A stretch of 64,000 bases of DNA, from assembly GCA_051313645.2 (NCBI GenBank), contig JBNRSN020000005.1, positions 77,810,001 to 77,874,000 on the forward strand, given 5' to 3'. Every line of letters begins with the position of its first letter. Position 1 is the stretch's first letter. Source of the DNA: Centroscyllium fabricii. Lineage: Eukaryota. The notes under the pieces were generated by a model that had not been told where the DNA came from, did not search any database, and was given only the letters and a program-made list of their open reading frames with translations. Shown here piece after piece: positions 801 to 59,157 of this stretch. Both the position numbers and the translations under genes were made by a program.

Positions 801-1388
801 TGGTTGGAATCATACCTAGCGCAAAGGAAGTTGGTTGTGGTTGTTGGAGGTCATTCATCTCAACCACAGGACATCACTGCAAGAGTTCCTCAGGACAGTG
901 TCCTAGGCCCAACCATCTTCAGCTGTTTCATCAATGACCTTCCCTCCATCATAAGGTCAGAAGTGGGGATGTTTGCTGATGATTGCACACTGTTCAGCAC
1001 CATTCGAGACTCGTCAGATACTGACGCAGTCTGTGTCCATATGCAGCAAGACCTGGATAACATTCAGACTTGGGCTGACAAGTGGCAAGTAACATTCGCA
1101 CCACACAAGTGCCAGGCAATGACCATCTCCAACAAGCGAGGCTCGAACCATCTCCCCTTGACATTCAATGGCATTATCATCGCTGAATCTCCCACTATCA
1201 ACATCCTGGGGGTTACCATTGATCGGAAACTGAACTGGACCAGCCATATAAATACTGTGGCTACAAGAGCAGGCCAGAGCTGGGAATTCTGCGGCGAGTG
1301 TCTCACCTCCTGACTCCCCAAAGCCTTTCCACCATCTACAAGGCACAAGTCAGGAGTGTGATGGAATACTCTCCACTTGCCTGGATAG
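801..1388 (+). mobile_element. Second CR1-clade LINE RT fragment (different subfamily), abutting the truncated Gypsy end
   Basis: WLESYLAQRK...VPQDSVLGPTIF...MFADDCT...W..KWQVTFAPHKC; same family as 9645-10250 and 32191-33030. Confidence 0.85.
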
Positions 1389-4300
1389 CGTCGGGGGCCC
1401 CGGTGTGTGTGCGTATGTAGGCCAGTAATCAGTGGATGTTGATCGATATGTAGGCCAGTGTTCGGTAGATGGTGGCTGGTCGGGCTGAGGCTCGACCAGA
1501 GGTTCTGCTCTAGAGCTCCCGGCGAGCGCTAGGTCTCTGATGGAAACTGTGTCCTCGCCGCCGTCCGGGAACTGCACGTAGGCATACTGCGGGTTGGCGA
1601 GCAGCAGCTGCACCTTTTCCACCAGGGGGTCGGTCTTATGGCCGCGGACATGTTTCCTAAGTAAGACCGGCCCCGGCGTCGTGAGCCACGGTGGGAGTGC
1701 TGTCCCCGAAGTCGACTTCCTGGGGAAGGAAAATAATAGGTCGTAAGGTGTAGCATTTGTAGCCGTGCACAGCAGAGAGTGAATGGAGTGGAGCGCGTCT
1801 GGGAGGACTGCCTGCCAACGGGACACTGGAAGGCCTCTGGACTTCAGGGCCAGGTTGACCGCCTTCCAGATGATCCCGTTCTCCCTTTCTACCTGGCCGT
1901 TCCCCCGGGGGTTGTAACTGGTCGTTCTGCTTGAGGCAACGCCTTTCTGAAGCAGAAACTGACGCAGTTCGTCGCTCATGAATGACGACCCCTGGTCGCT
2001 ATGGATGTAGCTGGGGAGACCGAAAATGGCAAACTGCATGGTGAAGTGTCTTATCACAGTTGCGCTCGTCATATCTGGGCAGGGGAAGGCGAAGGGGAAG
2101 CGGGAGAACTCGTCCACGACCGTGAGGAAGTACGAGTTGCGGTCGGTGGAAGGGAGGGGGCCTTTGAAGTCCACGCTCAGACGTTCAAAGGGGCGGGTGG
2201 CCTTGATGATGTACGCTGTGTCTGGCCTGTAAAATTGGAGTTTGCACTCGGTGCAGACAGTGCACTCTCGGGTCATAGCCTTGATCTCCGTGATGTAGTA
2301 GGGGAGGCTACGGGACGTAACGAAATGGGCGAGTCTGGTGACACCCGGGTGGCACAGGCTATCGTGGAGGGCCTTCAGCCGGTCCAGCTGGGCGCTGGCG
2401 CACGTTCCCCGGGACAATGCGTCCGGGGGTTCGTTGAGTTTGCCTGGGCGGTAAAGAATGTCGTACTCGTAAGTCGAGAGTTCGATCCGCCACCGCAGGA
2501 TCTTATCATTCTTGATTTTACCCTTTTATTTATTGTAAAACATAAACGCGACTGACCGTTGGTCGGTGAGCAGGATAAAATGCTTACCGGCCAGGTAATG
2601 ACGCCAGTAGCGCACTGCCTCCACGATGGCCTGGGCCTCCTTTTCCACTGCTGAGTGGCAAGTTTCGGGTCCCTGTAGGGTGCGGGAGAAAAACGCTACG
2701 GGCCTGCCCACCTGATTCAAGGTGGCGGCCAGGGCGAAGTCCGAAGCGTCACTCTCCACCTGGAAATGGATGGACTCATCAACGGCGTGCATGGTCGCCT
2801 TGATGATATCTTCCTTAATCAGGGCGAATGCCATTTGGGCTTCTACCGAGAAGGGGAAGACGTCAGCCTTGAGGAGCGGTCTGGCCTTATCCGCGAACTG
2901 GGGGACCCATTGTGCGTAATAGGAGAAAAATCCCAGACAAAATCCCAGACATCTCCTCAGGGCTTTGGGGTTGTGAGGAAGGGGCAGTTCCTGTAAGGGG
3001 CGCATACACTGTGGGTCAGGGCCGAGGACCCCGTTTTCCACCACGTATCCGAGGATTGCGAGCTGATCTGTACTAAAGATGCACTTGTCTTTATTGTATG
3101 TGAGATCGAGCCGTTTCGCCGTGTGGAGAAATTTTGCAAGGTTGGCATCGTGGTCCTGCTGGTCATGGCCGCAGATGGTCACGTTGTCCAGGTAGGGAAA
3201 GGTGGCCTGCAACCCGTTCTGGTCAACCATACGGTCCATCTCCCTTTGCAATACCGACACCCCGTTGGTCACGCCGAAGGGGACCCGGAGGAAGTGGTAG
3301 AGCCGACCGTTCGCCTCGAAGGCGGTGTACTGGCGGTCTGATTTCCTGATTGGGAGTTGGTGATACGCCGACTTAAGGTCGATTGTCGAAAAGACCGAAT
3401 ACTGGGCAATCTGGTTAACCATGCGGGGAAGCGGGTAGGCATCGAGACCGGTGTAGCGGTTAATTGTCTGTCTGTAATCGATCACCATCCGTAATTTCTC
3501 GCCAGTCTTAACCACTATGACCTGGGCCCGCCAGGGGTTGGTGCTGGCCTCAATTATCCCCTCCTGCAGCATACGCCCGACTTCTGACCTGATAAATGCC
3601 CGGTCCCCTGCACTGTAACGCCGACTCTTGGTAGCAATAGGTTTGCAGTTGGGGTCGAGGTTGGCGAACAGCGAGGGGGGGTTGACTTTCAGGGTGGATA
3701 GGCCGCAAGTCGGGCTCCGCTTCAGGAAGGGATTTTCCCGGCTACTGACGGTGAGGGGGGCCAGGGTCCCGCCGAACTCCATTGTCACGCTCTTCAGGTG
3801 GCACTGGAAATCCAGTCCCAGTAAGACTGGGACGAACAACTGCTGGAGTATGTACAGTTTAAAATTGCGGTACACGCAGTCCCTGACCGTGAGCGTGACG
3901 GAGCAGTAGCCGGTGACGTCCGCCGTGTGGGACTTTGAAGCAAGGGAGATTTGGTAGCGCATGGGCAGGGTCCGCAGTGCGTAGCGCTGCACTGTGTCAG
4001 GGTGGATGAAGCTCTCTGTGCTTCCGGTGTCGAACAGACAGTTGGTAACGTGACCGTCCACTTTAATCCCCATCATGGAATTTGATAGGGTGTGCGGCCT
4101 AGCCTGGTCGACAATGGCTGAGGCCGAAGTGTGTGTGTGTGTGTAGGGGCCCTCCGCTAGCTGGGGCCATGCACAAGATGGCGGCGCCCGTGGTTCGTAT
4201 GCAGCCAACCGCGGTGGACAAGATGGCGGTGCTGGGGGGTCGTACATGGCTGGCCGCGGGATACAAGATGGCGGCGCCATGGAGTCGCACGCAGCCGACC

Positions 4301-5558
4301 GCGGTGGACAAGATGGCGGCGCCGGGGAGTCGCTCATGGCTGGCCGCTGGGAACAAGATGGCGGTGCCGGGGAGTTGCACATGGCTGGCTGCTGGGGACA
4401 AGATGGCGGCGCCCGTGATTCGCACGCGGCGGACCGCGGTGGACGAGATGGCGGCGCCCGTGGTTCGCATGCGGTGGACCGCGGTGGACGAGGTGGCAGT
4501 GCCCGTGGTTCGCACGCAGCGGACCGCGCTGGGCGAGGTGGCGGTGCCCGTGGTTCGCACGCAGCGGACCGCGCTGGGCGAGGTGGCGGCTTTGGGGGGT
4601 CGCACATGGCTGGCCACGGCTGCCATTGGCATGGCGGTGCCCGTGCCGTGCGCGCGGCCGGCCTCTGCCGTGCAGGGATGGGAGACAGAGGCACCTGTGG
4701 TTTACCCCCGGACCGCTGCTGGGTCGCGCTGCAACAGCAGTTTACCTTAGGCCATGGGATGGCGTTGGAGCTCTCGCAGGCCGCGCTGTTGGATCTGGAG
4801 CTGGGCGCTGGGGCCGATTTGGAGGCCCTGGCGTAGTGTCCTTTCTTGCCGCATCTCTCGCAGGTCGCGCTCTTCGCGGGGCATTTCGCTCGCGGGTGTT
4901 GTCCCTGGCCGCAGAAGTAGCATCTACGCTCCGACGGCGTCTTCGCAGCTGCCGCTGCCATCGTGGGGTCCTCGACCTGTCGTGGGGCCGCCCAGGGATC
5001 GAGGGTATCGTGTGGGCCTTGGCCGCCATACGCCTCTAGTTTGCGGCGCGCTCCGTCCACTGCGTTGGAGATGGAGATCGCCTCCTCCAGTGATAGAGTG
5101 TCCTTTTCCAATAACCGCTGACGGGCCTGGTTGGACCTGATTCCTGCCACGTATGCGTCCCGTACGAGGAGATTCATCTCCTCCTGCGCCGTTCGTGGCT
5201 GGCAGTCACATGCCCGAGCGAGGGCTTGAAGCGCCAACAGATATTGTTCGTTCGACTCACCAAGCCGCTGTTGTCTGGTCGCCAGGACGTGTCTGGCATA
5301 GACCGAGTGGACCGGGCGCAAGTAGCATTCCTTCAGCTTCTTCACCGCCTCTGTGTACGTCGTGAGGCCGCGGATGAAGGAGTACACACGGCTACTGATT
5401 CTGGACGAGAGGACGTGTAGTTTGTCCCCGTCGCTCATCGCCTTTGCGGCCTCCATGTAGGCCTCGACAAGGCTGAACCAATGTTCAAAAGTGTTGGCGG
5501 CGGCTGGTTCCTGTGGATTGATATCCAATTTTTCGGGTTTCACAGCGCCACTCTCCAT
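1389..5558 (-). pseudogene. G1 gag-pol polyprotein with one in-frame stop at 2526-2528
   Basis: Zinc knuckles CYFCGQGQHPRAKC and CERCGKKGH; protease LFDTGS; RT VPFGV and YLDNV; RNase H ESDAS/EKE/TDQ; integrase HHCC and D,D,E. ORFs 2526..5558 and 1350..2417 are in the same frame, and the TAA sits where G3 has Gln. A 12-bp duplication gives CLGFCLGF. Confidence 0.93.
4174..4640 (-). repeat. 45-bp coding minisatellite (~10 copies, 15-aa Pro/Cys/Ala unit) between nucleocapsid and protease
   Basis: CAAGATGGCGG-like core recurs at 4174, 4219, 4264, 4309, 4354, 4399, 4444, 4489, 4534, 4579. Confidence 0.95.
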
Positions 5559-5580
5559 TTCAAAATTAAGTTATTAAAAT

Positions 5581-5872
5581 TGACGTATCGTCAATAATAC
5601 AAAGACGAGTAGTTACCTTAACTATAGGCTTTTAATAACTTAAAGATGGAGCTAGTCTCCAGTTGAACATCAGGTACAGAATGACTGGGGGCAGGGCGGA
5701 CCTCACCTATAAGGCTCCCACCTGAGGGGAGGAGTTAGAGGTGTGGCTGACCTGACCTTACAACCGTGTTCTACATCTCATACCTTCAATGCACCAAGCA
5801 ACTATATACATGGGTCATGTGGTGCAGTACAATTACAATCCAACTATATACAATGGTAATATGATTACCACA
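5581..5872 (-). repeat. 5' LTR of G1 (292 bp)
   Basis: Minus strand TGTGGTAA...GATACGTCA; TATA-like CTTATAGG, ATTAAA signal; central and 3' parts similar to the LTRs at 35581 and 37279. Confidence 0.92.
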
Positions 5873-8166
5873 TTGAGGTTCTGCATTGCTGAAAATGACT
5901 TTTTGAGCTTTGAAACCTGCATGTATGTAGGTGAGATGGCTGGGACAACATTAATGCAGTGATTGATAAGTGCTGGTCCTCACTCGAACAACCATTAATG
6001 TGGCCGTGGTTGCTTAATGCCGTTATTAAACTGCATGTTACAGTTGCAACGTTTATTGTTTCTGGGTTCATTATTGCATGTGATGGATGGATGGATGGGA
6101 ACATGAGCATAAATGAAATGTCTGGGGCGTCAGGGGACTGGGTGCATGCACGAGCGCTGAAGGCACTCAGAGCCAATTGGCAGCCCCACAAGCCCACCCC
6201 CCACACACAAGATGTTGTTGCAGTAGTGGGGCTCATGCAGGTATGAGCTATGGAACTGATTGGAGTGTGGCAGTGTGGATGCGCTGTTAGGATAGTGAGA
6301 CGAGCAGAAGCTGCCTTGAGTAGGCTAAGCAAATCTTGCAAGGATGAACTCATTGCTTGCTTGCCGGGCAGCAATGTTCTCGCGTAATGCTGGCAGAGGC
6401 TGGTGTCGAGCTGCAGCAAATCCGTCTTCTTCGTCCTCCTCTTCCTCTTCCTCTTCCTCCTCCTCTTCCTCTTCCTCTTCCTCCTCCTCTTCCTCCTCCT
6501 CCTCCTCATCATCTGAGGATGGTATGCGAGGAGCCAGGTCTTGGTCAGGAAGTTGCAAGCCACGACGCTGGGCCATGTTGTGAAGTTGACAGCAAACCAC
6601 TACCATTCTGGAGACCCTGGCTGGGGAGTATTGGAGGGCTCCACCTGATCTGTCCAAGCATCTGAAACGCATCTTGAGCAAGATGATGGTGTGCTCTATA
6701 ATGCTTCTGGTGGAGATGTATGTGGAGTTGTAGTTCTCCTCAGCCTCATTGGCTGGCCTCCTGACTGGCGTCATGAGCCAAATCCTGAGGGGATAGCCCA
6801 TGTCTCCAAGTAGCCATCACGGAAGTTCGTCCGGCGGTATGAAGAGCGTAGGCAAGGTTGATTGGCGCAGGACGAAGGAGTCATGGCAGCTGCCAGGGTA
6901 CCTGGCACACACATGCAAAATCTCCTTGTTGTGGTCGCACACCAGTTGAACATTAAGCGAATGGAAGCCCTTGCGGTTGACAAAAGCAACTGGGTTGTCG
7001 GTGGGTGCCCTAAGGGCCACATGTGTGCAGTCAATAATGCCCTGCACCCTTGGGAAGCCTGCCAGACGAGCTATTCCAATCGCTCAGGCCCTCACACTTG
7101 CGCGATCCGTGGTGAAATGGATGAAATTGTGGGCGAGGGCAAAGAGGGCATCGGTTACCTGGGTGATGCAGGAGTGTGTGGCCGACTGAGAGATTCCACT
7201 GATGTCAGCTGCTGATCCCTGAATGAGCCAGAGGCAAAGAAGTTGAGTGCGGTGGTGACTTTGAGGGCCACTGGTAAGGCATGTCTACCTGGTGTCCTGG
7301 GCTCCAGCTGGTGCTGCAGCATGGCGCAGATGTCTGTGACTGCCTCTCGGGAACGTCAGAGGTGCCTTTGGCACCGCCACTCACTCATGTTGAGGTAGGT
7401 GGCTCGGACTCTGTAGACCTGGTTTGGGGGGTATCTTCTACGGCGCCGGCCTTCGATGCGCGGATGCCTTCTGGCCCATCCTGCCACCGGAGGGTCTGCA
7501 GGAGCGTCAGGCTCCTGGTGTGGCTGATGCTGGTGAGGTGGCTCCTGCTGTGGCTGCTGCTGTTGCTGCTGTAGCCGCAACTGCTCCTGATGGCGATCAT
7601 GTAATCCCAAGAAGGGAAGGAAGAAAATGGCTCCCATGGCTGTGCTGGCAGCCGCAGCTGAGGAAGCACTGAGTGAGGGGGGGAAGTGAGAGGGCTTTCT
7701 CAGGTCACACTGCAGAAGTGTTTGAGGATGCAACCTTCCACAGGTTTGCTGAAGCCTGTTGCAAGTATCCCCAGGATTGAGACAACAATGTGGTTGCGAA
7801 TGCGATTAATGGCTGATTAAATGTGAGCCTTCAAATAGTGACCAGCCACAGATACTCAGCAATCCGAATGAGTTCGCACTAGGGTTGCACCTGACGGGCT
7901 TTAGCTTGGTGGCTTTTTTGCGGCAAACAGCTGAAAATAGCTAAGGGCCCTTAAAATGGCATAAAGATGGCAATTAAGGGCCCTTAATGACCTTAACAAC
8001 CATCCCCGCCGGGCGCCGGCGGCAAAGATTTGGGGCGGAGAAAAAGGCCGCCCAAAAACTCAAAACCGGCGGGGAATGGGCGGGCTTGGGCGGGAACCAA
8101 AGTTTTCCTATTTTCACCTCACGGCCGCCCAAAACCCCGCCTGATGGGGACATCAAAATTCCCCCC
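5873..8166 (-). mobile_element. PIF/Harbinger DNA transposon remnant, left part cut by the G1 insertion
   Basis: HARBI1-like transposase; terminus AAAATTCCCCCC at 8155-8166. Confidence 0.85.
6325..7637 (-). pseudogene. HARBI1-like DDE transposase, frameshifted, with C-terminal poly-Glu tract
   Basis: [14 protein letters not shown]; GIIDCTHV; [15 protein letters not shown]; PGSCHDS; GYPL..WLMTP; IE..I..LK.RFRCL; spread over several frames; (GAG/GAA)n at ~6425-6510. Confidence 0.92.
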
Positions 8167-35580: not shown

Positions 35581-37578
35581 TGTGGTAACCGTTATATGTA
35601 CTCTTTTACCACCATAATATTGTTGCCCAATATTAATCTGTATGTATAGCGGCCGGGTGCATGATACACTGCTTTGTATTGCGACACTGTCGCGGGGTCA
35701 GGTCAGCCACATCTCTAACTCCTCCCCTCAGGTGAGTGCCTTATAGGTGGGGTCTGACCTGCCCCCATCCATTCTGTACCTGATGTTCGATCGGAGCGTA
35801 GCTCCTTTGTAAGCTAATAAAAGCCTTTAGTTGAGGTAACTACGTGTCTTTGGTTTTATTAGACTATTGACGATACGTCCTGCGGTGGCGGATCGAGCTC
35901 TCGACTTACGCATACGACATTCTTTACCGACCAGGCAAACTCAATGAACCCCCGGACGCATTGTCCAGGGGAACGTGCGCCAGTGCCCAGCTAGACCGGC
36001 TGAAGGAACTCCATGATCGCCTCTGCCACCCGGGTATCACCAGACTCGCCCACTTCGTTAAATCCCGTAGCCTCCCCTACTCCATCACGGAGATCAAGGC
36101 TATGACCCAAGAGTGCCCTGTTTGCGCCGAGTGCAAACCCCAATTTTACAGGCCAGACACGGCGCACCTCATCAAGGCCACCCCCCCATTTGAACGTCTA
36201 AGCGTGGACTTCAAAGGCCCCCTCCGCTCCACCGACCGCAACTCGTACTTCCTCATGGTCGTAGACGAGTTCTCCCGCTTCCCTTTCGCCTTCCCCTGCC
36301 CAGATATGACGAACGCAACGGTGATCAAACACTTCACCACGCTGTTCGCCATTTTCGGTCTCCCCAGCTACATCCATAGCAACTGGGGATCGTCGTTCAT
36401 GAGCGACGAACTGCGTCAGTTTCTGCTTCAGAAAGGGATTGCCTCAAGCAGAACGACCAGTTACAACCCCCGGGGGAACGGCCAGGTAGAAAGGGAGAAC
36501 TGGATCATCTGGAAGGCGGTCAGCCTGGCCCTGAAGTCCAGAGGCCTTCCAGTGTCCCGTTGGCAGGCAGTCCTCCCAGATGCACTGCACTCGATCCGCT
36601 CTCTGTTGTGTACGGCTACCAACGCCACAGCTCACGATTTGCTCTTTTCCTTCCCCAGGAAGTCGACTTCGGGGACAGCCCTTCCACCATGGCTCACGAT
36701 GCCGGGGCCGGTCTTGCTTAGGAAGCATGTTCGTGGCCATAAGACTGACCCCCTGGTAGACAAGGTGCAGCTGCTGCATGCCAACCCGCAGTACGCGTAC
36801 GTTCAGTTCCCGGACGGGCGCGAGGACACCGTCTCCATCAGGGACCTAGCGCCCGCCGGGAGCACCACAGCAGAGCCCCTGGTCGAGCCTCAGCCCGTCC
36901 ACCCACTACATTTCGACCACTGGCTGATACACCATCCACAACCCACCGGAGGCTGGCCATTTCAAACATACACATCGGAGCCCCCGTCACTGCCAGCTGA
37001 GGACCAGGAACCGGACGACGAGCCGCAGGCACAGCAGCAACCGGAGGGCCCGGCCCCACCGCCACTACCAGCACCTACGGTACCGGCACCAGCGCCGCCG
37101 CCACTACCGGCACCAGCGCCGCCGACACTACCGACACCAGCGCCGCCGACACTGCAGACACCAGAGCCGCTGACAGAGACCCGGTGGTCCTCCAGACAGA
37201 CGCGACCGCCGGAGAAACTCATCATGAACTGTTCTGTCCATTCACCCCGCCGGACTTAATTTTCAAAGAAGGGGTGAATGTGGTAACCGTTATATGTACT
37301 TTTTTACCACCATAATATTGTTGCCCAATATTAATCTGTATGTATAGCGGCCGGGTGCATGATACACTGCTTTGTATTGCGACACTGTCGCGGGGTCAGG
37401 TCAGCCACACCTCTAACTCCTCCCCTCAGGTGAATGCCTTATAGGTGGGGTCTGACTTGCCCCCATCCATTCTGTACCTGATGTTCGATCGGAGCGTAGC
37501 TCCTTTGTAAGCTAATAAAAGCCTTTAGTTGAGGTAACTACGCGTCTTTGGTTTTATTAGACTATTGACGATACGTCA
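35581..37578 (+). mobile_element. Internally deleted Gypsy element G2: LTR-integrase-PPT-LTR (1998 bp)
   Basis: LTRs 35581-35879 and 37279-37578 (~5 substitutions in 300 bp); TSD CCTGT; PPT AAAGAAGGGG at ~37265; the 5' LTR joins directly to LRWRIELS at the end of RNase H. Confidence 0.96.
35961..37259 (+). CDS. G2 integrase open frame (HHCC zinc finger, catalytic core, Pro-rich tail); no native start codon
   Basis: H..LCHPG...C..C; VDFKG; HSNWG (second catalytic Asp changed to Asn; G1 has HSDQG); GQVERE. Confidence 0.8.
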   Translation: MSRGTCASAQLDRLKELHDRLCHPGITRLAHFVKSRSLPYSITEIKAMTQECPVCAECKPQFYRPDTAHLIKATPPFERLSVDFKGPLRSTDRNSYFLMVVDEFSRFPFAFPCPDMTNATVIKHFTTLFAIFGLPSYIHSNWGSSFMSDELRQFLLQKGIASSRTTSYNPRGNGQVERENWIIWKAVSLALKSRGLPVSRWQAVLPDALHSIRSLLCTATNATAHDLLFSFPRKSTSGTALPPWLTMPGPVLLRKHVRGHKTDPLVDKVQLLHANPQYAYVQFPDGREDTVSIRDLAPAGSTTAEPLVEPQPVHPLHFDHWLIHHPQPTGGWPFQTYTSEPPSLPAEDQEPDDEPQAQQQPEGPAPPPLPAPTVPAPAPPPLPAPAPPTLPTPAPPTLQTPEPLTETRWSSRQTRPPEKLIMNCSVHSPRRT

Positions 37579-38822: not shown

Positions 38823-41800
38823 TGAGATGCCTCAAATCAAAGACGGCAGCGAGTTCTTAAATAAGTGGCTTTTATTCACAAGGAACTGAACCGTGTCCCC
38901 GATGAGCCTGCCTGGAATGAGAGATAAGTGGGCGGAGCATTCTCCTTTATACTAGTACCCAGAGGCGGGGTCAGCCGGAACAGGTCCTTACAGAAATGTA
39001 GAGATATTAACAGATATATAACAAACACATTAAACAAAACTATATACAATAACCGTACAGTGTGATCCACACCAAAAGGTTCATCACATTCACACCTTCC
39101 TTAAAAAGAAGTCCAGCGGGGCGAATATCAGCACTGTGTTATTAGTCTTTGTGGAGGTTTAACAGTCCGATCAGATCGGCGAGGCAGTGTCGGTTCTGGT
39201 GAAGAAGCGGGAGTAGTCGTAATCGGAAAAGACGCTGACGGGGCTCCCGACGTGAACAGAGACTCCACCGGTGGAAGAGGTACCTCAGGCACAGGAAGAT
39301 CTGGTGGAGGTGTAGCAGCCGCCAAAAGAGTAGGCTGAGCAACATGATGAGCTCCGTCGTGCATCGGAAGTGATGAGGGCCCCGATGTAATGTGCGCAGG
39401 TGAATGAAAAGACGGCCCCTGCTGTGAAAATGTGACCTGGGAGGGCAAGGGCTCCGCCAACGACTCAAGAGTGAACGTCTCCAGCGGGCGCAAGGTCTCT
39501 AATCGAGACGGTATCCTCACGCCCGTCTGGGTACGCCACGTAGGCATACTGAGGGTTGGCATGCAGCAAGCGCACACGTTCGACAAGAGGGTCCGTCTTG
39601 TGTCCACGGACATGCCTTCTAAGCAAAACCAGCCCCGGGTTGGTAAGCCACGTCGGCAGAGACGTCCCCAAAGTTGATTTCCTAGGGAAAGAGAAGAGTT
39701 TCTCGTGAGGTGCGCAACCGGTGGCTGTGCACAAGAAGGAGCGGGTAGCGTGGAGCGCATCCTGGAGGACCTCCTGCCAATGAGAGGTTGGAAGGCCTTT
39801 GGATCGAAGGGCCAGGGTGATGGCCTTCCAGATGGTCCCATTATAACGTTCTACCTGACCGTTCCCCCGGGGGTTGTAACTGGTCGTTCTGCTCGAGGCA
39901 GCCCCCCTCACGAGCAGAAAATGACGCAGTTCGTCACTCATAAATGAGGACCCCGGTCGCTGTGTATGAAGCCGGGAAGGCCGAAAATGGCGAATAGCAT
40001 GATAAAATGCTTTATCACTGTTGCACTCGTCATATCTGGGCATGGGAATGCAAAAGGGAAACGGGAGAACTCGTCGACCACAGTGAGAATGTACGAGTTA
40101 CGGTTGGTAGAGGGGAGGGGACCTTTGAAGTCCACACTCAGGCACTCGAATGGGCGGGTGGCCTTGATGAGGTGCGCCCTGTCAGGCCTGTAAAACTGGG
40201 GCTTGCACTCAGCACAGACAGGGCACTCCTGCGTCATCGCCTTGATCTCCGCAATGGAATAAGGGAGATTGCGTGATTTGACGAAGTGAGCGAGCCTGGT
40301 GACCCCCGGGTGGCAGAGATTAGCGTGGAGGGTGTTCAGACTACCCGACTGGGCGCTGGCACACGTTCCTCAGGACAGGGCGTCCGGGGGATCGTAAAGC
40401 TTCCCTGGCCAGTACAGAATGTCGTACTCAAAAGCGGAGAGTTCGATCCGCCACCTGAGGATCTTGTCATTCTTGATTTTACCCCTCTGTTTATGGTGGA
40501 ACATAAACGCTACTGACCGCTGGTCAGTAAGAAGGGTAAATCGTTTACCGCCCAAATAGTGGCGCCAGTGGCGCACTGCTTCCACGATTGCTTGGGCCTC
40601 CTTTTCCACTGAAGAGTGGCGGACTTCAGGGCCCTGCAGGGTACGGGAGAAGAAAGCGACGGGCCTGCCTGCCTGGTTAAGGGTGGCGGCCAGGGCGAAG
40701 TCTGAGGCGCCGCTTTCGACGTGGAAGGGGAGAGACTCATCAATGGCGTGCATGGTTGCCTTGATGATGTCTTGCTTGATATGCGAAAAAGCAATTTGGG
40801 CCTCTAACGGGAGCGGGAAGGAGGTAGCCCTGAGTAGAGGCCGGGCCTTATCAGCATAATGGGGAACCCATTGTGCATAGTAAGAGAAAAAACCCAGGCA
40901 TCTCCTCAAAGCTTTGGGGGAGTGCGGTAGGGGCAGCTCCTGAAGGGGGTGCATACGTTCGGGGTCGGGGCCGAGGACCCCGTTCTCAACCACGTAGCCG
41001 AGGATAGCCGAGGATAGTGTTGAAAACGCACTTATCCTCATTGTAAGTGAGGTTCAGACGCTGGGCCGTACGGAGAAACCTGTCCAAATTGGCATCATGA
41101 TCTTGCTGGTCATGGCCGCAGATCGTGACATTGTCCAAATACGGGAATGTGGCCTGCAAATCATACTGGTCAACCATTCGGTCCATCTCTCGTTGGAAGA
41201 CCGAAACTCTGTTGGTAACTCCAAAGGGGACCCGGAGGAAGTGAAAAAGGCGCCCATTTGCCTCGAAGGCAGTGTATTTACGGTCCTCAGCTCTGATGGG
41301 GAGCTGGTGATAGACTGACTTAAGGTCGATGGTGGAGAAGACCTTATACTGGGCAATCTGATTGACCATGTCATTGATTCTAGGAAGCGGATAAGCGTCG
41401 AGCCCAGTGTAGCGGTTAATAGTCTGGTTATAGTCGATGACCATGCGCTGTTTGTCGCCAGACTTAACCACCACCACCTGGACCCGCCACGGGCTGTTAC
41501 TGGCCTCGATGATGCCCTCCCGCAACAACCGAGCAACCTCTGCCTTCATAAAGGTGCGGTCCCCCGCGCTGTATCGCCGACTCTTGGTTGCAATGGGCTT
41601 GCAGTCAGGGTCAAGGTTGACGAACAGCGAGGGGGGTCTATCTTCAAGGTAGACAGACCGCAAGGGGAGTGTGGTTGTAAGGCAGGGCAGTCGCGGCTGC
41701 TGACCGTGAGAGGAGGCAGGGGACCGCCGTATGCCATCGTCATGCTCTGCAGATTGCACTGGAAGTCCAGGCCAAGCAACACAGGGGCGCAGAGCTGTGG

Positions 41801-43860
41801 GAGGACGTACAGTTGAAAGTTGCGGTATGTCGTCCCCTTCACGGTAATAGTGACTGTACAGCAGCCGATGACGTCCACAGTCTGGGACTCGGAGGCGAGG
41901 GAGATTTTACGATGTGTGGGCTTAACCCTGAGGGAATAACGGCGCACCGTATCAGGGTGTATGAAGCTCTCCGTACTCCCAGTGTCGAACAGTCATCGGG
42001 TGAGGTGCCCCTTTACCCGGATGGGCATCATCGATGATATGAGAGACTGGTTGAGGGCTGTAGAGGCAAGTGTGGTGTGCGCGCTAGGGCCCTTGTGCAA
42101 TGCAGGGTTCGCGAGCGATGGCGGCTCCCGTGATTCGCACGCGGCGGGCCACGGTGGTGTTTCGGGCCGTTGGGAGGACCGCTAGGTGGGTCGCTGAGAA
42201 AGCCGTTGGGAGGACCGAAGGGCTCGTGGCGCGCAAGCACCAGAATGCTGAATTGCCCTGGAGTTGCCTGTTGCTGCTGCCAGGATCATTGGAATTTCTC
42301 CAGGGCTGCCTGTTGCTGCTGCTGCCTGCATCGGTAAGCTTGCCTTAAACAAAGATGGCCGCGCCCTGGGCTGGGGCGGGGCTGCTGCTGCCAGGAGGCG
42401 AATTGCCCGCATCCAAGATGGCGGTGTCATGTGACGGGGCGGGGCCGCTGCTGCCAGGATGCGAGTTGACCGCATCAAAGATGGCGGCGCCCTGTGCTGG
42501 GATGCTGCCGCTGCTGCCAGGATACCCGACGGCGCCCGCGTTTCACGCCGATTCAGCGAGGAAGAAGGTGCCCGCGCCCCCAAAGATGGCGGAGTGCGGG
42601 AAACGAGCGAGGAAGAAGATGCCCGCGCCCCCAAAGATGGCGGAGTGCGGGAAACAACGTTGGCAGGCCGCATCTGAGGCAAGGTAGGTGGCAATCATTC
42701 AGAGGGCCGCTGTTGGGGGGCGCTAGGTACCTGAGGCAACTCTGTGGCGTGGACATCGCAGGCTGCTGCCATTTTCCGTGCTGATTCCGGGGCTGATCGG
42801 CAGACCTTCGCAAAATGGCCCTTCTTGCCAATTTGGAGCAGGAAAATGCCTTCGCTGGGCTGGAGCTTCGTGGATGGTGTTTCTGGCCGCAAAAAAAACA
42901 TTTCGGAGGCGCTGGCTGTCCAGATGGTGCCGTGGCCGCCACGGTCGCCGTCGAGGGCGTCGAACACGAGTCCCAAGGCCCAGGGGAAACCGTGTGGGAG
43001 CCGTGCCCCGTGTACGAATCTAGGCTCCGGAGGGCCCCATCCACCGCGTTGGAAAGCTTCAGCGCCTCATTTAGGGATAAATTACCCTGCTCGAGCAGAC
43101 GGGTGTGGGCTGGGGCCGATCTGATGCCTGCCACGTAGGCATCGCAGACAAGGAGGTCCATGTGCTCCTGGGCGTTAACAGGGGCGCATCCGCAGCATTG
43201 AAGAGCCTCCAGGTACTCCTCTTTCGACTCACCATGCTGTTGCCGCCACGTGCCGAGTAGATGGCGAGCATAGACTGCGTTGACTGGCTGGAGATATCGA
43301 GCCTTCAGTAGCTCCATCGCTGCATCGTATTCCGTGGCGCTCTTAATTATGGAATACACTCTGCCACTCACGCAGGAGACCAGGACTCTTCTCTTGTGCG
43401 CGTCGCCGACTCCGGCCACGACAAGGTACGACTCGAAGCAGCTCAGCCAATGTTCAAAAACTTTCAACGCGTTCAGTGCCTGGGGGTTGAGGTCGAGAGT
43501 TTTTGGTTTTAGAACTGTCTTCCAACTCTCAGATGTTGCTGGCTGTTGATCTTCATTCTGCTGGCTCATTTTAAAAATCCTTGTGAATAAAATTGAGATG
43601 CCTCAAATCAAAGACGGCAGCGAGTTCTTAAATAAGTGGCTTTTATTCACAAGGAACTGAACCGTGTCCCCGATGAGCCTGCCTGGAATGAGAGATAAGT
43701 GGGTGGAGCATTCTCCTTTATACTAGTACCCAGAGGCGGGGTCAGCCGGTACAGGTCCTTACAGAAAAGGTACAGATATTAACAGATATATAACAAACAC
43801 ATTAAACAAAACTATATACAATAACCGTACAGTGTGAACCACACCAAAAGGTTCATCACA
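38823..43860 (-). mobile_element. Full-length but frameshifted Gypsy element G3
   Basis: LTRs 38823-39088 and 43594-43860; TSD AATAC; PPT at 39089-39105; gag ATG 43569; PR FDTGS, RT YLDNV, RNase H and INT in shifted frames. Confidence 0.96.
39128..43569 (-). pseudogene. G3 gag-pol, multiple frameshifts
   Basis: ORF pieces 42553..43569, 42182..42694, 41546..41947, 40986..41759, 40370..41041, 39938..40237, 39465..40043 and 39128..39841 tile the G1 polyprotein. Confidence 0.93.
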
Positions 43861-56165: not shown

Positions 56166-57469
56166 AATTCTTCCTCATCTCTGTCCTCAATGGCCTACCC
56201 CTTATCCTTAGACTGTGCCCCCTGGTTCTGGACTCTCCGACCATCGGGAACATTCTTCCTGCATCTAGTTTGTCCAGACCTGTCGGAATTTTATAAGTTT
56301 CGATGAGATCTCCTCTCATTCTTCTAAATTCTAAATTACAGTGAGTATAAGCCTAATCGACCCAACCTCTCCTCATACGTTATTCCTGCCATCCCAATTC
56401 AATTCAATTCAATTCAAGTTTTATTGTCATTGCAGAGTACTAGTACAATACAACGAGACGAAGACTCGACGCTCCCGAGAGTAGTGCAAATAAATTACAT
56501 GCAAATTGCATACAGTAAAGTACATTATCAGGCGTGCAGGTACCGGAGTTTATTTTTAGAATTCAGCAGGCTGACAGCCCTGGGGAAGAAGCTGTTCTTA
56601 AATCTAGTCGTGCGGGTGCAAATTGATCTGTAGCGTCTCCTGGAGGGCAGGGGGGTGAACAGACTGTGGCTGGGGTGTGTGGGGTCTTTAATAATATTCG
56701 GAGACCTCCATAAGCAGCGTTTGAGGTAGATGCTTTCCATTGACGGTAGCTGGGGACCGGTGATTCGTTGGGCAGTTTTGACTACCCGCTGCAGGGTTTT
56801 CCAGTCTGAGATAGTGCAATTTCCATACCAGACTGTGATGCAGCTTGTCAGTATGCTTTCTATTGTGCAGCGGTAGAAGTTGGAGAGGATGCCGGATGAC
56901 AGCCTGGCTTTCTTCAGCTTCCTTAGGAAGTACAGGCGCTGTTGGGCCTTCTTAACCAGAGAGGAGGTGTTTAGTGACCAGGAGAGATCTTCCGAGATGT
57001 GGACCCCGAGGAACATGAAGCTGGACACCCTTTCCACCTCAGCCCCTTGGATGAAGATGGGGGTGTGTCTTCTGCTTCCAGTCCTCCGGAGGTCCACTAT
57101 GATCTCCTTAGTTTTCTTGGTGTTCAGTGCCAGGTTGTTGTCGGCACACCATCCCACAAGGCGCTGGATCTCATCCCTGTAGGCTGACTCGTCGTTATTG
57201 GTGATCTGGCCAACCACCGTGGTGTCATCCGCAAACTTGATGATCGTGTTGGAGCCATGGACAGCCGCACAGTCGTGAGTGAAGAGGGAGTAGAGGAGTG
57301 GGCTCAGCACACAACCTTGTGGGGCCCCCATGTTCAGGGTAAGTGGGGTGGGAGGTGAGGTTGCCTAACTTCACAGACTGTGGTCTGTTGGTTAGGAAGT
57401 CCAGGGTCCAGTTGCAGAGGGAGGTGTTCAGGCCGAGGGTGAGGAGTTTGTTAGACAATTTGCTCGGGA

Positions 57470-58670
57470 CGAGCGTGAGAGTGAGGAGTGGGAATCAGAG
57501 GTTGAGAGTGTGAGAGTGTGAGGAATGGGAATCAGAGTGTGAGAGTGTCAGAGTGAGGAATGGGAATCAGAGTGTGAGAGTGTGAGAGTGTGGAATGGGA
57601 ATCAGGGCGTGAGAGTGTGAGAGTGAGGAATGGGAATCAGAGCGTGAGAGTGTGAGAGTGAGGAATGGGAATCAGAGCGTGAGAGTGAGGAATGGGAATC
57701 AGAGCGTGAGAGTGTGAGAGTGAGGAATGGGAATCAGAGCATGAGAGTGTGAGAGAGTGGAATGGGAATCAGAGCGCGGCGTGTGAGAGTGAGGAATGGG
57801 AATCAGAGCGCGGTGTGAGAGTGAGGAATGGGAATCAGAGCGCGGTGTGAGAGTGAGGAATGGGAATCAGAGTGCGGTGTGTGAGAGTGAGGAATGGGAA
57901 TCAGAGCGTGAGAGTGTGAGAGTGAGGAATGGGAATGAGAGCGTGAGAGTGAGAGTGAGGAATGGGAATCAGAGCGTGAGAGTGTGAGAGTGAGGAATGG
58001 GAATCAGAGCGTGAGAGTGAGGAATGGGAATCAGAGCGTGAGAGTGTGAGAGTGAGGAATGGGAATCAGAGCGCGGTGTGAGAGTGAGGAATGGGAATTA
58101 GAGCGCGGTGTGAGAGTGAGGAATGGGAATCAGAGTGCGGTGTGTGAGAGTGAGGAATGGGAATCAGAGCGTGAGAGTGAGGAATGGGAATCAGAGCGTG
58201 AGAGTGTGAGAGTGAGGAATGGGAATCAGAGCGCGGTGTGAGAGTGAGGAATGGGAATTAGAGCGCGGTGTGAGAGTGAGGAATGGGAATCAGAGTGCGG
58301 TGTGTGAGAGTGAGGAATGGGAATCAGAGCGTGAGAGTTTGAGAGTGAGGAATGGGAATGAGAGCGTGAGAGTGTGAGAGTGAGGAATGGGAATCAGAGC
58401 GTGAGAGTGTGAGAGTGAGGAATGGGAATCACAGCGTGAGTGTGTGAGAGAGTGAGGAATGGGAATGAGAGCGTGAGAGTGTGAGAGAGTGAGGAATGGG
58501 AATGAGAGCGTGAGTGTGTGAGAGAGTGAGGAATGGGAATGAGAGCGTGAGAGTGTGAGAGTGAGGAATGGGAATCAGAGCGTGAGAGTGTGAGAGTGAG
58601 GAATGGGAATCAGAGCGTGAGAGTGTGAGAGTGAGGAATGGGAATCAGAGCGTGAGAGTGTGAGAGTGAG
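57470..58670 (+). repeat. Purine-rich minisatellite, ~27-37 bp unit GAGTGAGGAATGGGAATCAGAGCGTGAGAGTGTGA
   Basis: More than 30 tandem copies with variable GA/GT spacer. Confidence 0.97.
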
Positions 58671-59157
58671 GTTGAACAACCACCAAAAACTCCCATACCT
58701 ATTGGGGGAACAGAGGGACTGTATAAAACTGGCGGCAAAATACGTCACAGCTTGCCATAAGCAGAGGGACAACCAGTGACCATTGAAGCTAGGAAGAGCA
58801 TACAAGCTCTATATGCGGGTATATATGTATGTGTGTGCGTAGCTATTCATTCAATACGTCTGGTTATGCATTTGTATGTCCAATTGTATATGTTCTTTTT
58901 AGATCTATCTGCGGGTTTTTATGTGTATGTGTATGCATAGTTATTCATTCAATACGTCTGGTTATGCATTTGTATGTCCAACTGTATTAGATCTATATGC
59001 GGGTTTTTATGTGTATGTGTATGCATAGTTATTCATTCAATACGTCTAGTTATGCATTTGTATGTCCAACTGTATATGTTCTTTTTTGTGCTTTGGCAAC
59101 ATAGGATGTATCTTGTCATGCCAATAAAGCAATTTGAATTGAATTGAATTGAATTGA
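58671..59157 (+). mobile_element. 3' end of another non-LTR element (RTE-X-like) with a triplicated 3' UTR segment and (TTGAA)n tail
   Basis: C-terminus KLPYLLGEQRDCIKLAAKYVTACHKQR*; three ~90-100 bp repeats at 58810-59075; CAATAAAGC then (TTGAA)n. Clade name from recall only. Confidence 0.6.

Follow-up and report, generated by a model that had tools for sequence, protein, structure and literature searches.

Priming of reverse transcription by the element's own RNA has been described for the Tf1/sushi elements, which use the first 11 nt of their RNA, i.e. its 5' end, as primer, according to the consulted sections of the respective papers (PMC7175516, PMC10085805, PMC4600332). For Tf1, cleavage by RNase H occurs between nt 11 and 12 (PMC7175516, same sections), and in the excerpt of a further study about half of the Tf1 cDNA retains the full PBS as single-stranded DNA (PMC11042837). 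Self-priming itself is known beyond this group: in the text seen, it is predicted for the plant lineages Tcn1 (gypsy) and TAR (copia) from LTR-PBS complementarity alone, and TAR indicates that the trait can arise outside the chromoviruses. Tcn1 and TAR differ from the lineage described here, being other lineages whose primers are not placed on the poly(A) signal in that text (PMC6317226). Tf1, Tf2, Tj1 and the sushi elements share with it a PBS directly after the LTR that is the complement of the own LTR, the absence of a tRNA and a flanking stem.

The window analyzed here, a stretch of 64,000 nucleotides from Centroscyllium fabricii, contains an element (G1, minus strand; Table 1) with the coding order PR-RT-RNase H-integrase, which is that of Ty3/Gypsy. 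Its 5' LTR ends ...GATACGTCA at 5581 and is followed by a leader of 22 nt (5580-5559) and the gag ATG (5558-5556), which bears out the junction given for the LTR, leader and start codon in the first-pass annotation. The outer limit of the LTR is set by family copies that match the window to 5872 and part at 5873 (23 anchored of 29 copies), and its 3' end by the match to a related 3' LTR at 37279-37578. The annotation had also reported a 14-bp inverted repeat between the leader and the LTR segment bearing ATTAAA. On re-inspection this repeat was exact, with a loop of 50 nt between its arms, and the distance from the TATA-like box to the partner, given there as ~65 nt, came to 68 nt in G1 when recounted. 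Homology of G1 with a sister element stops near 1392. Between its Gag knuckles and protease, G1 has a Pro/Ala/Arg-rich stretch, which is encoded by a 45-bp tandem repeat (4083-4659).

Elsewhere in the window, the second and divergent element G2 has a leader/LTR pairing in the same register as that of G1, with other letters. TG...CA LTRs, a polypurine tract and a short target duplication, as expected of Ty3/Gypsy, are found in the lineage: two LTRs, the polypurine tract and 5-bp duplications are present in G2, in an element at 35581-37578 (plus strand) and at a further locus of the genome (L268), whereas G1 has lost its 3' end. The element at 35581-37578 is an internally deleted G1 relative, in which the 5' LTR is joined straight to integrase, without leader or gag; its LTRs are 98% alike and it is flanked by a 5-bp target duplication. 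Just upstream of the polypurine tract, a conserved GC-rich motif of 12 nt followed by a T-run was seen at 37245-37256 (plus strand), at 39121-39110 (minus strand) and in L267 and L268, that is, in families of this genome; none was seen in the metagenome tails read. A minisatellite array with 35/27-bp units lies at 57442-58706.

Table 1. Features of elements G1 and G2, in positions of the window.
Feature	Position	Strand	Remarks
G1 5' LTR	5581..5872	-	292 bp, TG...CA; family copies split at 5873; related 3' LTR; contig depth drops past 5872
TATA-like box, G1	5706..5711	-	TATA-like word at -79 to -84 from the primer 3' end in 51/54 junctions
Initiator-like motif, G1	5679..5685	-	predicted +1 is A5682, 29 nt past TATA; Inr-like A at -50 to -53 in 51/54 junctions
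Candidate self-primer segment, G1	5630..5643	-	about +40 to +53 of the predicted RNA; ATTAAA at 5636-5631; predicted 3' end 5630
Short GCC-initiated stem, G1	5615..5629	-	stacked onto the primer duplex where the cut is predicted; in the G1 MFE; stem from these bases in 50/77 folds
Small hairpin across the LTR end (U5-IR-like)	5579..5595	-	G1-like families, not universal
One-base spacer A	5580	-	opposite G5629, G-A mismatch at the predicted cut; 53/54 junctions
PBS of G1 (putative)	5566..5579	-	complement of 5643-5630
gag-PR-RT-RH-IN of G1, single-frame type	1350..5558	-	broken: in-frame stop at ~2526, no PPT, no 3' LTR
Element G2	38823..43860	-	LTRs 43860-43594 and 39088-38823; 5-bp target duplication; coding region in pieces
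Candidate primer segment of G2, second divergent family	43641..43655	-	contains AATAAA
PBS of G2 (putative)	43578..43592	-	15/15 complementary to own LTR segment; letters differ from G1

The fold of a 138-nt G1 segment is ordinary as a whole (z -1.39, with 20/200 shuffles equally good), and the duplex is present in the MFE and centroid structures alike. Because the whole-segment fold is not unusual, one copy of G1 proves little, and the support for a G1-type duplex rests on covariation, not on folding energy. In the assembly of 7.2 Gb, two gag-start patterns have 103,297 and 39,828 sites, i.e. more than 140,000 gag starts. Junctions were chosen by the gag start alone, so that the complement was not built into the search, and the first 30 per pattern were analyzed (n = 60, all from one contig). 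The best upstream duplex scored 10-15 in 57 of these 60 junctions; when the 300 nt upstream of gag were shuffled (300 shuffles), the mean was 6 and the maximum 11. Judged by these scores, the duplex is not due to chance. An initial pattern count (165,468 against 304 in the control) was set aside, as that pattern partly includes the complement and some sites were counted twice.

Per-position counts were made on 54 of the 60 junctions, six being dropped as degraded or out of register. The paired 13 bases start one base after the CA of the LTR and their partner lies ~50 nt upstream in the LTR; positions 1-13 from the LTR end are Watson-Crick paired in 692/702 cases, with 3 G-U pairs and 7 mismatches, and pairing falls to 27/54 at position 14. 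The base preceding position 1 forms a G-A mismatch in 53 of the 54. Variation is found at positions 6, 8, 9, 12 and 13, and it is matched between the two sides: a perfect 13-mer occurs in 44/54 own pairs vs 170/2862 cross-pairs, and at least 17 perfectly self-matched 13-mer forms are present in this one genome, each tracking its own LTR. On the gag tree, position 9 shows 9 changes, every one on both sides, and position 8 shows 10 LTR changes vs 13 joint changes, the 3 extra ones being single copies. Among independent pairs, 6/6 agree at position 9 (sign test p 0.03), and T at position 8 is matched in about 8/8 (p 0.008); position 6 offers two independent pairs only. With the LTR side fixed, 46,515 of 47,522 leaders genome-wide are exactly complementary at positions 8-9, which leaves no room for a large wobble family. 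G-U pairs make up 3/636 in the duplex vs 82/817 in predicted loop stems of the own-genome junctions, so that the duplex combines repeated compensatory changes with zero fixed G-U. The covariation test named in the first-pass annotation thus came out in favor of a complementarity conserved among relatives with compensatory changes, both in the 54 junctions and in the genome-wide leaders. In folding predictions the primer/PBS pairing probability exceeds 0.5 in 72/77 folds. The GCC stem is stacked at the primer 3' end in 50/77 and missing in 27/77 MFE folds, and no constant third duplex of the kind found in the Tf1 "pretzel" was observed in the 77 folds.

Relatives with the same layout are found in metagenome data. 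A metagenome scan kept 80 loci, 48 of them with a match to the Gag N-terminus, and 28 were searched blind for the longest inverted repeat upstream of gag. The duplex geometry was present in 23 of the 28; L089 and L107 also fit once an anchor or contig break is allowed for, L106 was added, and L095 and L126 were mis-anchored. The duplex is absent from L087, the 5' end of which fails to match its own 3' LTR. The 21 distinct divergent families share the geometry with other letters (duplex of 9-19 bp, loop of 21-69 nt). In all 21, the arm found blind starts one base after a CA, this end being fixed by a 3' LTR copy in 7, and GCC follows the segment in 16/21. A canonical poly(A) hexamer lies within the duplex of 15/21 families; 6/21 are without AATAAA or ATTAAA there, one of which (L131) has AATAAA in the loop. 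The G-U counts of the metagenome duplexes were left unused, being biased by the perfect-match search. Rays and sharks supply the nearest named proteins, and homologous proteins are also named from shrimps, a tunicate and a ctenophore; the last of these proteins falls together with a duplex-bearing locus in a tree whose root, from frame-broken BEL rows, was discarded. A scan of viral contigs found no relative of the lineage. The predicted LTR/leader pairing is thus carried by the whole lineage, not by G1 alone: the putative PBS, 13 nt in length (9-19 in relatives), starts one base after the LTR CA and is complementary to a segment that lies 21-69 nt upstream in the LTR, with the 3' end of this segment facing the LTR end.

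Two side observations concern these relatives. By eye, a pyrimidine run followed by CAG, resembling a 3' splice site, lies in the LTR, 0-40 nt upstream of the primer segment, in L097, L106, L107, L110, L112 and L115, and may represent an intron in R. In L101, upstream of 780, the post-PBS leader repeats ~17 nt of the upstream LTR in direct orientation, perhaps reflecting a template switch in plus-strand transfer.

The position of the primer segment relative to the promoter motifs sets the lineage apart from Tf1/sushi. In addition to the placement of the TATA-like and Inr-like motifs in the 54 junctions (Table 1), no TATA-like word occurs nearer than -79 in these junctions, and the 29-33 nt spacing of the two motifs at -80/-51 is kept in two superfamilies; the invertebrate-type relatives have no clear TATA. 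The primer segment covers the poly(A) hexamer, in the form A(A/T)TAAA, in nearly all own-genome junctions. As a control, 12 DUF4939 (sushi) regions of the same genome were used, 4 of which are incomplete. In the other 8 of the 12, which have two LTRs, an 11-bp self-match begins 29 nt past TATA and encloses a loop of 413-433 nt. These copies show a one-base spacer and a purine-purine mismatch, one compensatory change occurs among them, and their poly(A) hexamer lies far downstream of the primer. The one-base spacer and purine-purine junction mismatch are thus common to the sushi copies and the G1 lineage. Under the rule that transcription starts at TATA + 30, the sushi primer lies at the cap and the primer of this lineage ~40 nt inside R, with the start predicted from motifs. 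Four contig data sets yielded neither ends nor poly(A) tails, which counts neither for nor against this placement. The claim of the earlier annotation that the geometry is unlike that of Tf1 holds, as judged by promoter motifs, in comparison with sushi elements of the same genome: this lineage has a candidate primer of at least 13 nt, 68 nt past TATA and over the poly(A) signal, and a loop of 21-69 nt. Young sushi-type chromoviruses with LTR pairs 99.5-100% alike and textbook 11-nt self-primers (L213-L223) are present in the same genome.

We consider it probable that the lineage primes minus-strand DNA with its own RNA and that the 5' copy of R is the source. Self-priming had been proposed before as a possible function of the duplex, and the covariation, the register and the near absence of G-U support it as the likely one; within self-priming, the 5' R copy is preferred over the 3' R copy. 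The RNA would start ~52 nt before the segment 3' end, and the 5' R copy would fold onto the PBS, with the GCC stem and the G-A mismatch marking the junction. Cleavage after ...AAA, probably by the RT/RNase H of the element as in Tf1, would yield a 3'-OH that copies the LTR end. The short strong-stop DNA could then jump to the 3' R via the sequence that separates the cut from the poly(A) site, and plus-strand synthesis would copy ~13 retained primer bases and so regenerate the PBS from the LTR. Regeneration from the LTR primer in each cycle would result in wobble-free covariation; a C mutated to U on the LTR side would still give a tolerable wobble pair, but no such pair is fixed. In this respect the near absence of G-U fits template copying better than a mask that depends on structure only, and the fixed register, with the segment 3' end facing the LTR end, is on sequence grounds primer geometry. 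The duplex would also hide the 5' poly(A) signal as a secondary benefit, and only this one, because the leader exists only at the 5' end.

Several points speak against priming from the 5' R copy. Plus-strand synthesis on a capped primer of ~52 nt has no obvious reason to end at 13 nt, and a further trimming step has to be postulated; RNase H could cut the primer to 13 nt where the upstream R is paired with newly made minus-strand DNA. Selection on an AU-rich helix could equally disfavor G-U. In addition, the whole-segment fold is no better than shuffles, the GCC stem is missing from part of the folds and L087 is without the duplex.

Alternatively, the primer might stem from the RNA 3' end, with the 3' R copy pairing with the PBS, being trimmed or cut back to ...AAA and priming on a circularised genome. 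The location of the segment over the hexamer, in 15/21 divergent families and nearly all own-genome junctions, places it near the RNA 3' end, in favor of this reading, and if RNase H degraded the upstream R that is paired with DNA, exactly 13 bases would stay protected, which would explain the sharp boundary. Nevertheless, an identical 5' copy lies only 21-69 nt from the PBS, with which it pairs in most folds, and should outcompete one at a distance of 4 kb; both the GCC stem and the tail would also have to be taken off, and no precedent was found in the literature consulted. We regard priming from the 3' copy as unlikely.

A plain Tf1 geometry, with transcription in fact starting at the segment's first base, the leading 13-15 nt of the RNA serving as primer and the upstream TATA/Inr-like words not acting as the working promoter, would explain the 13-nt limit without an extra step; it would also suit the invertebrate-type relatives without clear TATA. 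It is nonetheless quite improbable when set against the conserved spacing of the motifs at -80/-51 in two superfamilies, the lack of a TATA-like word nearer than -79 and the sushi controls, where TATA lies 29 nt before the primer.

Masking of the poly(A) signal had been put forward as a function of the same duplex. In the 5' poly(A) hairpin of HIV-1, the hexamer is base-paired and lies within R; the hairpin is encoded in both LTRs, and the virus is tRNA-primed. The pairing of a poly(A) hexamer near the RNA 5' end is common to both systems, although the partner of the HIV-1 hexamer is in R, and that of the lineage described here is the PBS, outside the LTR. Were the duplex mainly a mask of this type, kept by structural selection, with priming achieved by other means, the hexamer in the duplex of 15/21 families and the restriction of the leader to the 5' end would follow readily. 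Such a main function is very improbable: in six of the 21 families the duplex is retained although it contains no canonical hexamer, and in L131 AATAAA lies outside it; the register at the LTR end is exact to the base, a precision that a mask would not require; G-U pairs are nearly missing; and the leader of 15-46 nt contains no other primer site. These observations (families without hexamer, L131, G-U) also weaken masking as an equal function and leave it plausible as a secondary effect. Masking is probably such an effect, and it may explain why the overlap with the hexamer is so common.

No PBS beginning with TGG was found in the 54 own-genome or the 21 metagenome junctions (0/54 and 0/21), and the PBS tracks the own LTR, in agreement with the earlier description of the site as not of the tRNA type; among the other Gypsy types of this genome, L255 and L339 do have a TGG PBS. 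Comparison with host tRNAs (four real isoacceptors; Cys, Lys, Gln) gave a longest complement of 9 nt, and of 6 nt for G1. A 16-nt tRNA match proved to be a false ARAGORN call with a span of 1219 nt. Priming by a small host RNA such as a tRNA or tRNA half, with an incidental self-match, is highly improbable and already close to refuted by the covariation, as a fixed set of host RNAs would not track LTR mutations through at least 17 PBS forms without TGG, even though the host tRNA set was sampled in part and half-tRNA primers exist in copia lineages according to the text seen (PMC6317226). One Gypsy family of this genome (L255, L256, L261) has an ORF of 1964 aa and a TGG-type PBS 5 nt past the LTR end.

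A PBS complementary to the own 5' LTR, which characterizes Tf1/sushi elements, is also found in this lineage. Its proteins differ from theirs. A chromodomain at the integrase C-terminus was found in 0/9 clade polyproteins vs 2/2 sushi controls, SH3_Tf2-1 and DUF4939 were found in 0/9 clade proteins, with chromodomain and SH3_Tf2-1 present in both sushi controls, and searches of the clade proteins gave no Retrotrans_gag, DUF4939 or Ty3_capsid match. Two zinc knuckles are present in 8/9 clade proteins, and the chromovirus-type Gag usually has one CCHC, according to the section consulted (PMC2577118). GPY/F is found in 0/9. In RT-RNase H trees, the clade (100/100) and sushi (100/100) are separate, and the clade is also apart from Mag-like and TGG-primed groups. 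Neither a sister relation to sushi (AU p 0.42) nor one to Mag-like elements (AU p 0.50) was rejected, and since two BEL-rooted RT trees disagree on the sister group, the claim is limited to "not nested in sushi". The lineage works like Tf1/sushi but is no member, and common descent of the trait is possible.

Four elements of this genome, which we take to be Mag-like on the basis of a motif, form a separate branch; the junction is readable in one of them, and its PBS begins with TGG. The listed traits of the Cigr-1 clade, as given in the part of the source consulted, are two CCHC arrays, integrase after RNase H, no chromodomain, no env and loss of GPY/F (PMC2774666). The first four are shared by this lineage with the Cigr-1 clade and Mag cluster (Ty3/Gypsy branch 2), and the loss of GPY/F with Cigr-1. 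The protease flap differs: of the 8 shown, 7 read MA(S/T)x and 1 reads LASG, and that of Cigr-1 is TANG (GANG type), on the same partial source. Searches for clade motifs in four supplementary data sets, with the aim of naming the clade, gave no match, and the clade name "Selfy" had no match in the literature. The RT motif is YxDN, not YxDD, in 27/40 readable clade sequences and in all 14 own-genome hits (window ~3180-3200, minus strand), so that Asn occupies the final position of the motif in a lineage that has been amplified enormously. A comparable change in the RT active site is reported to block Ty1 transposition.

In a broader reading, priming without a tRNA would have arisen independently of Tf1/sushi in a Gypsy clade distributed across animals, which turned its poly(A) signal into a primer. 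The RNA would be cut right after AAUAAA(A), possibly at the transcript 3' end on a circularised genome or together with host 3'-end processing, and one 13-bp duplex would switch between 3'-end formation and the start of reverse transcription. We put this forward as speculative and rather doubtful.

Our literature search, which extended to papers in part and not to the element databases Repbase, Dfam and GyDB, found no description of an LTR element with a PBS pairing to its own poly(A) region. In the sources consulted, self-priming in animals has so far been tied to sushi chromoviruses and a primer at the RNA 5' end; here it would concern a separate clade. The LTR-PBS match provides a simple sequence marker for such elements, and LTR annotation based on tRNAs would call the lineage "no PBS". 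If priming from the 5' R copy is true, RT/RNase H can make a primer from within R, atop the poly(A) signal, linking 3'-end control to replication. Such elements would escape silencing by PBS-directed tRNA fragments, which may bear on the expansion of the lineage.
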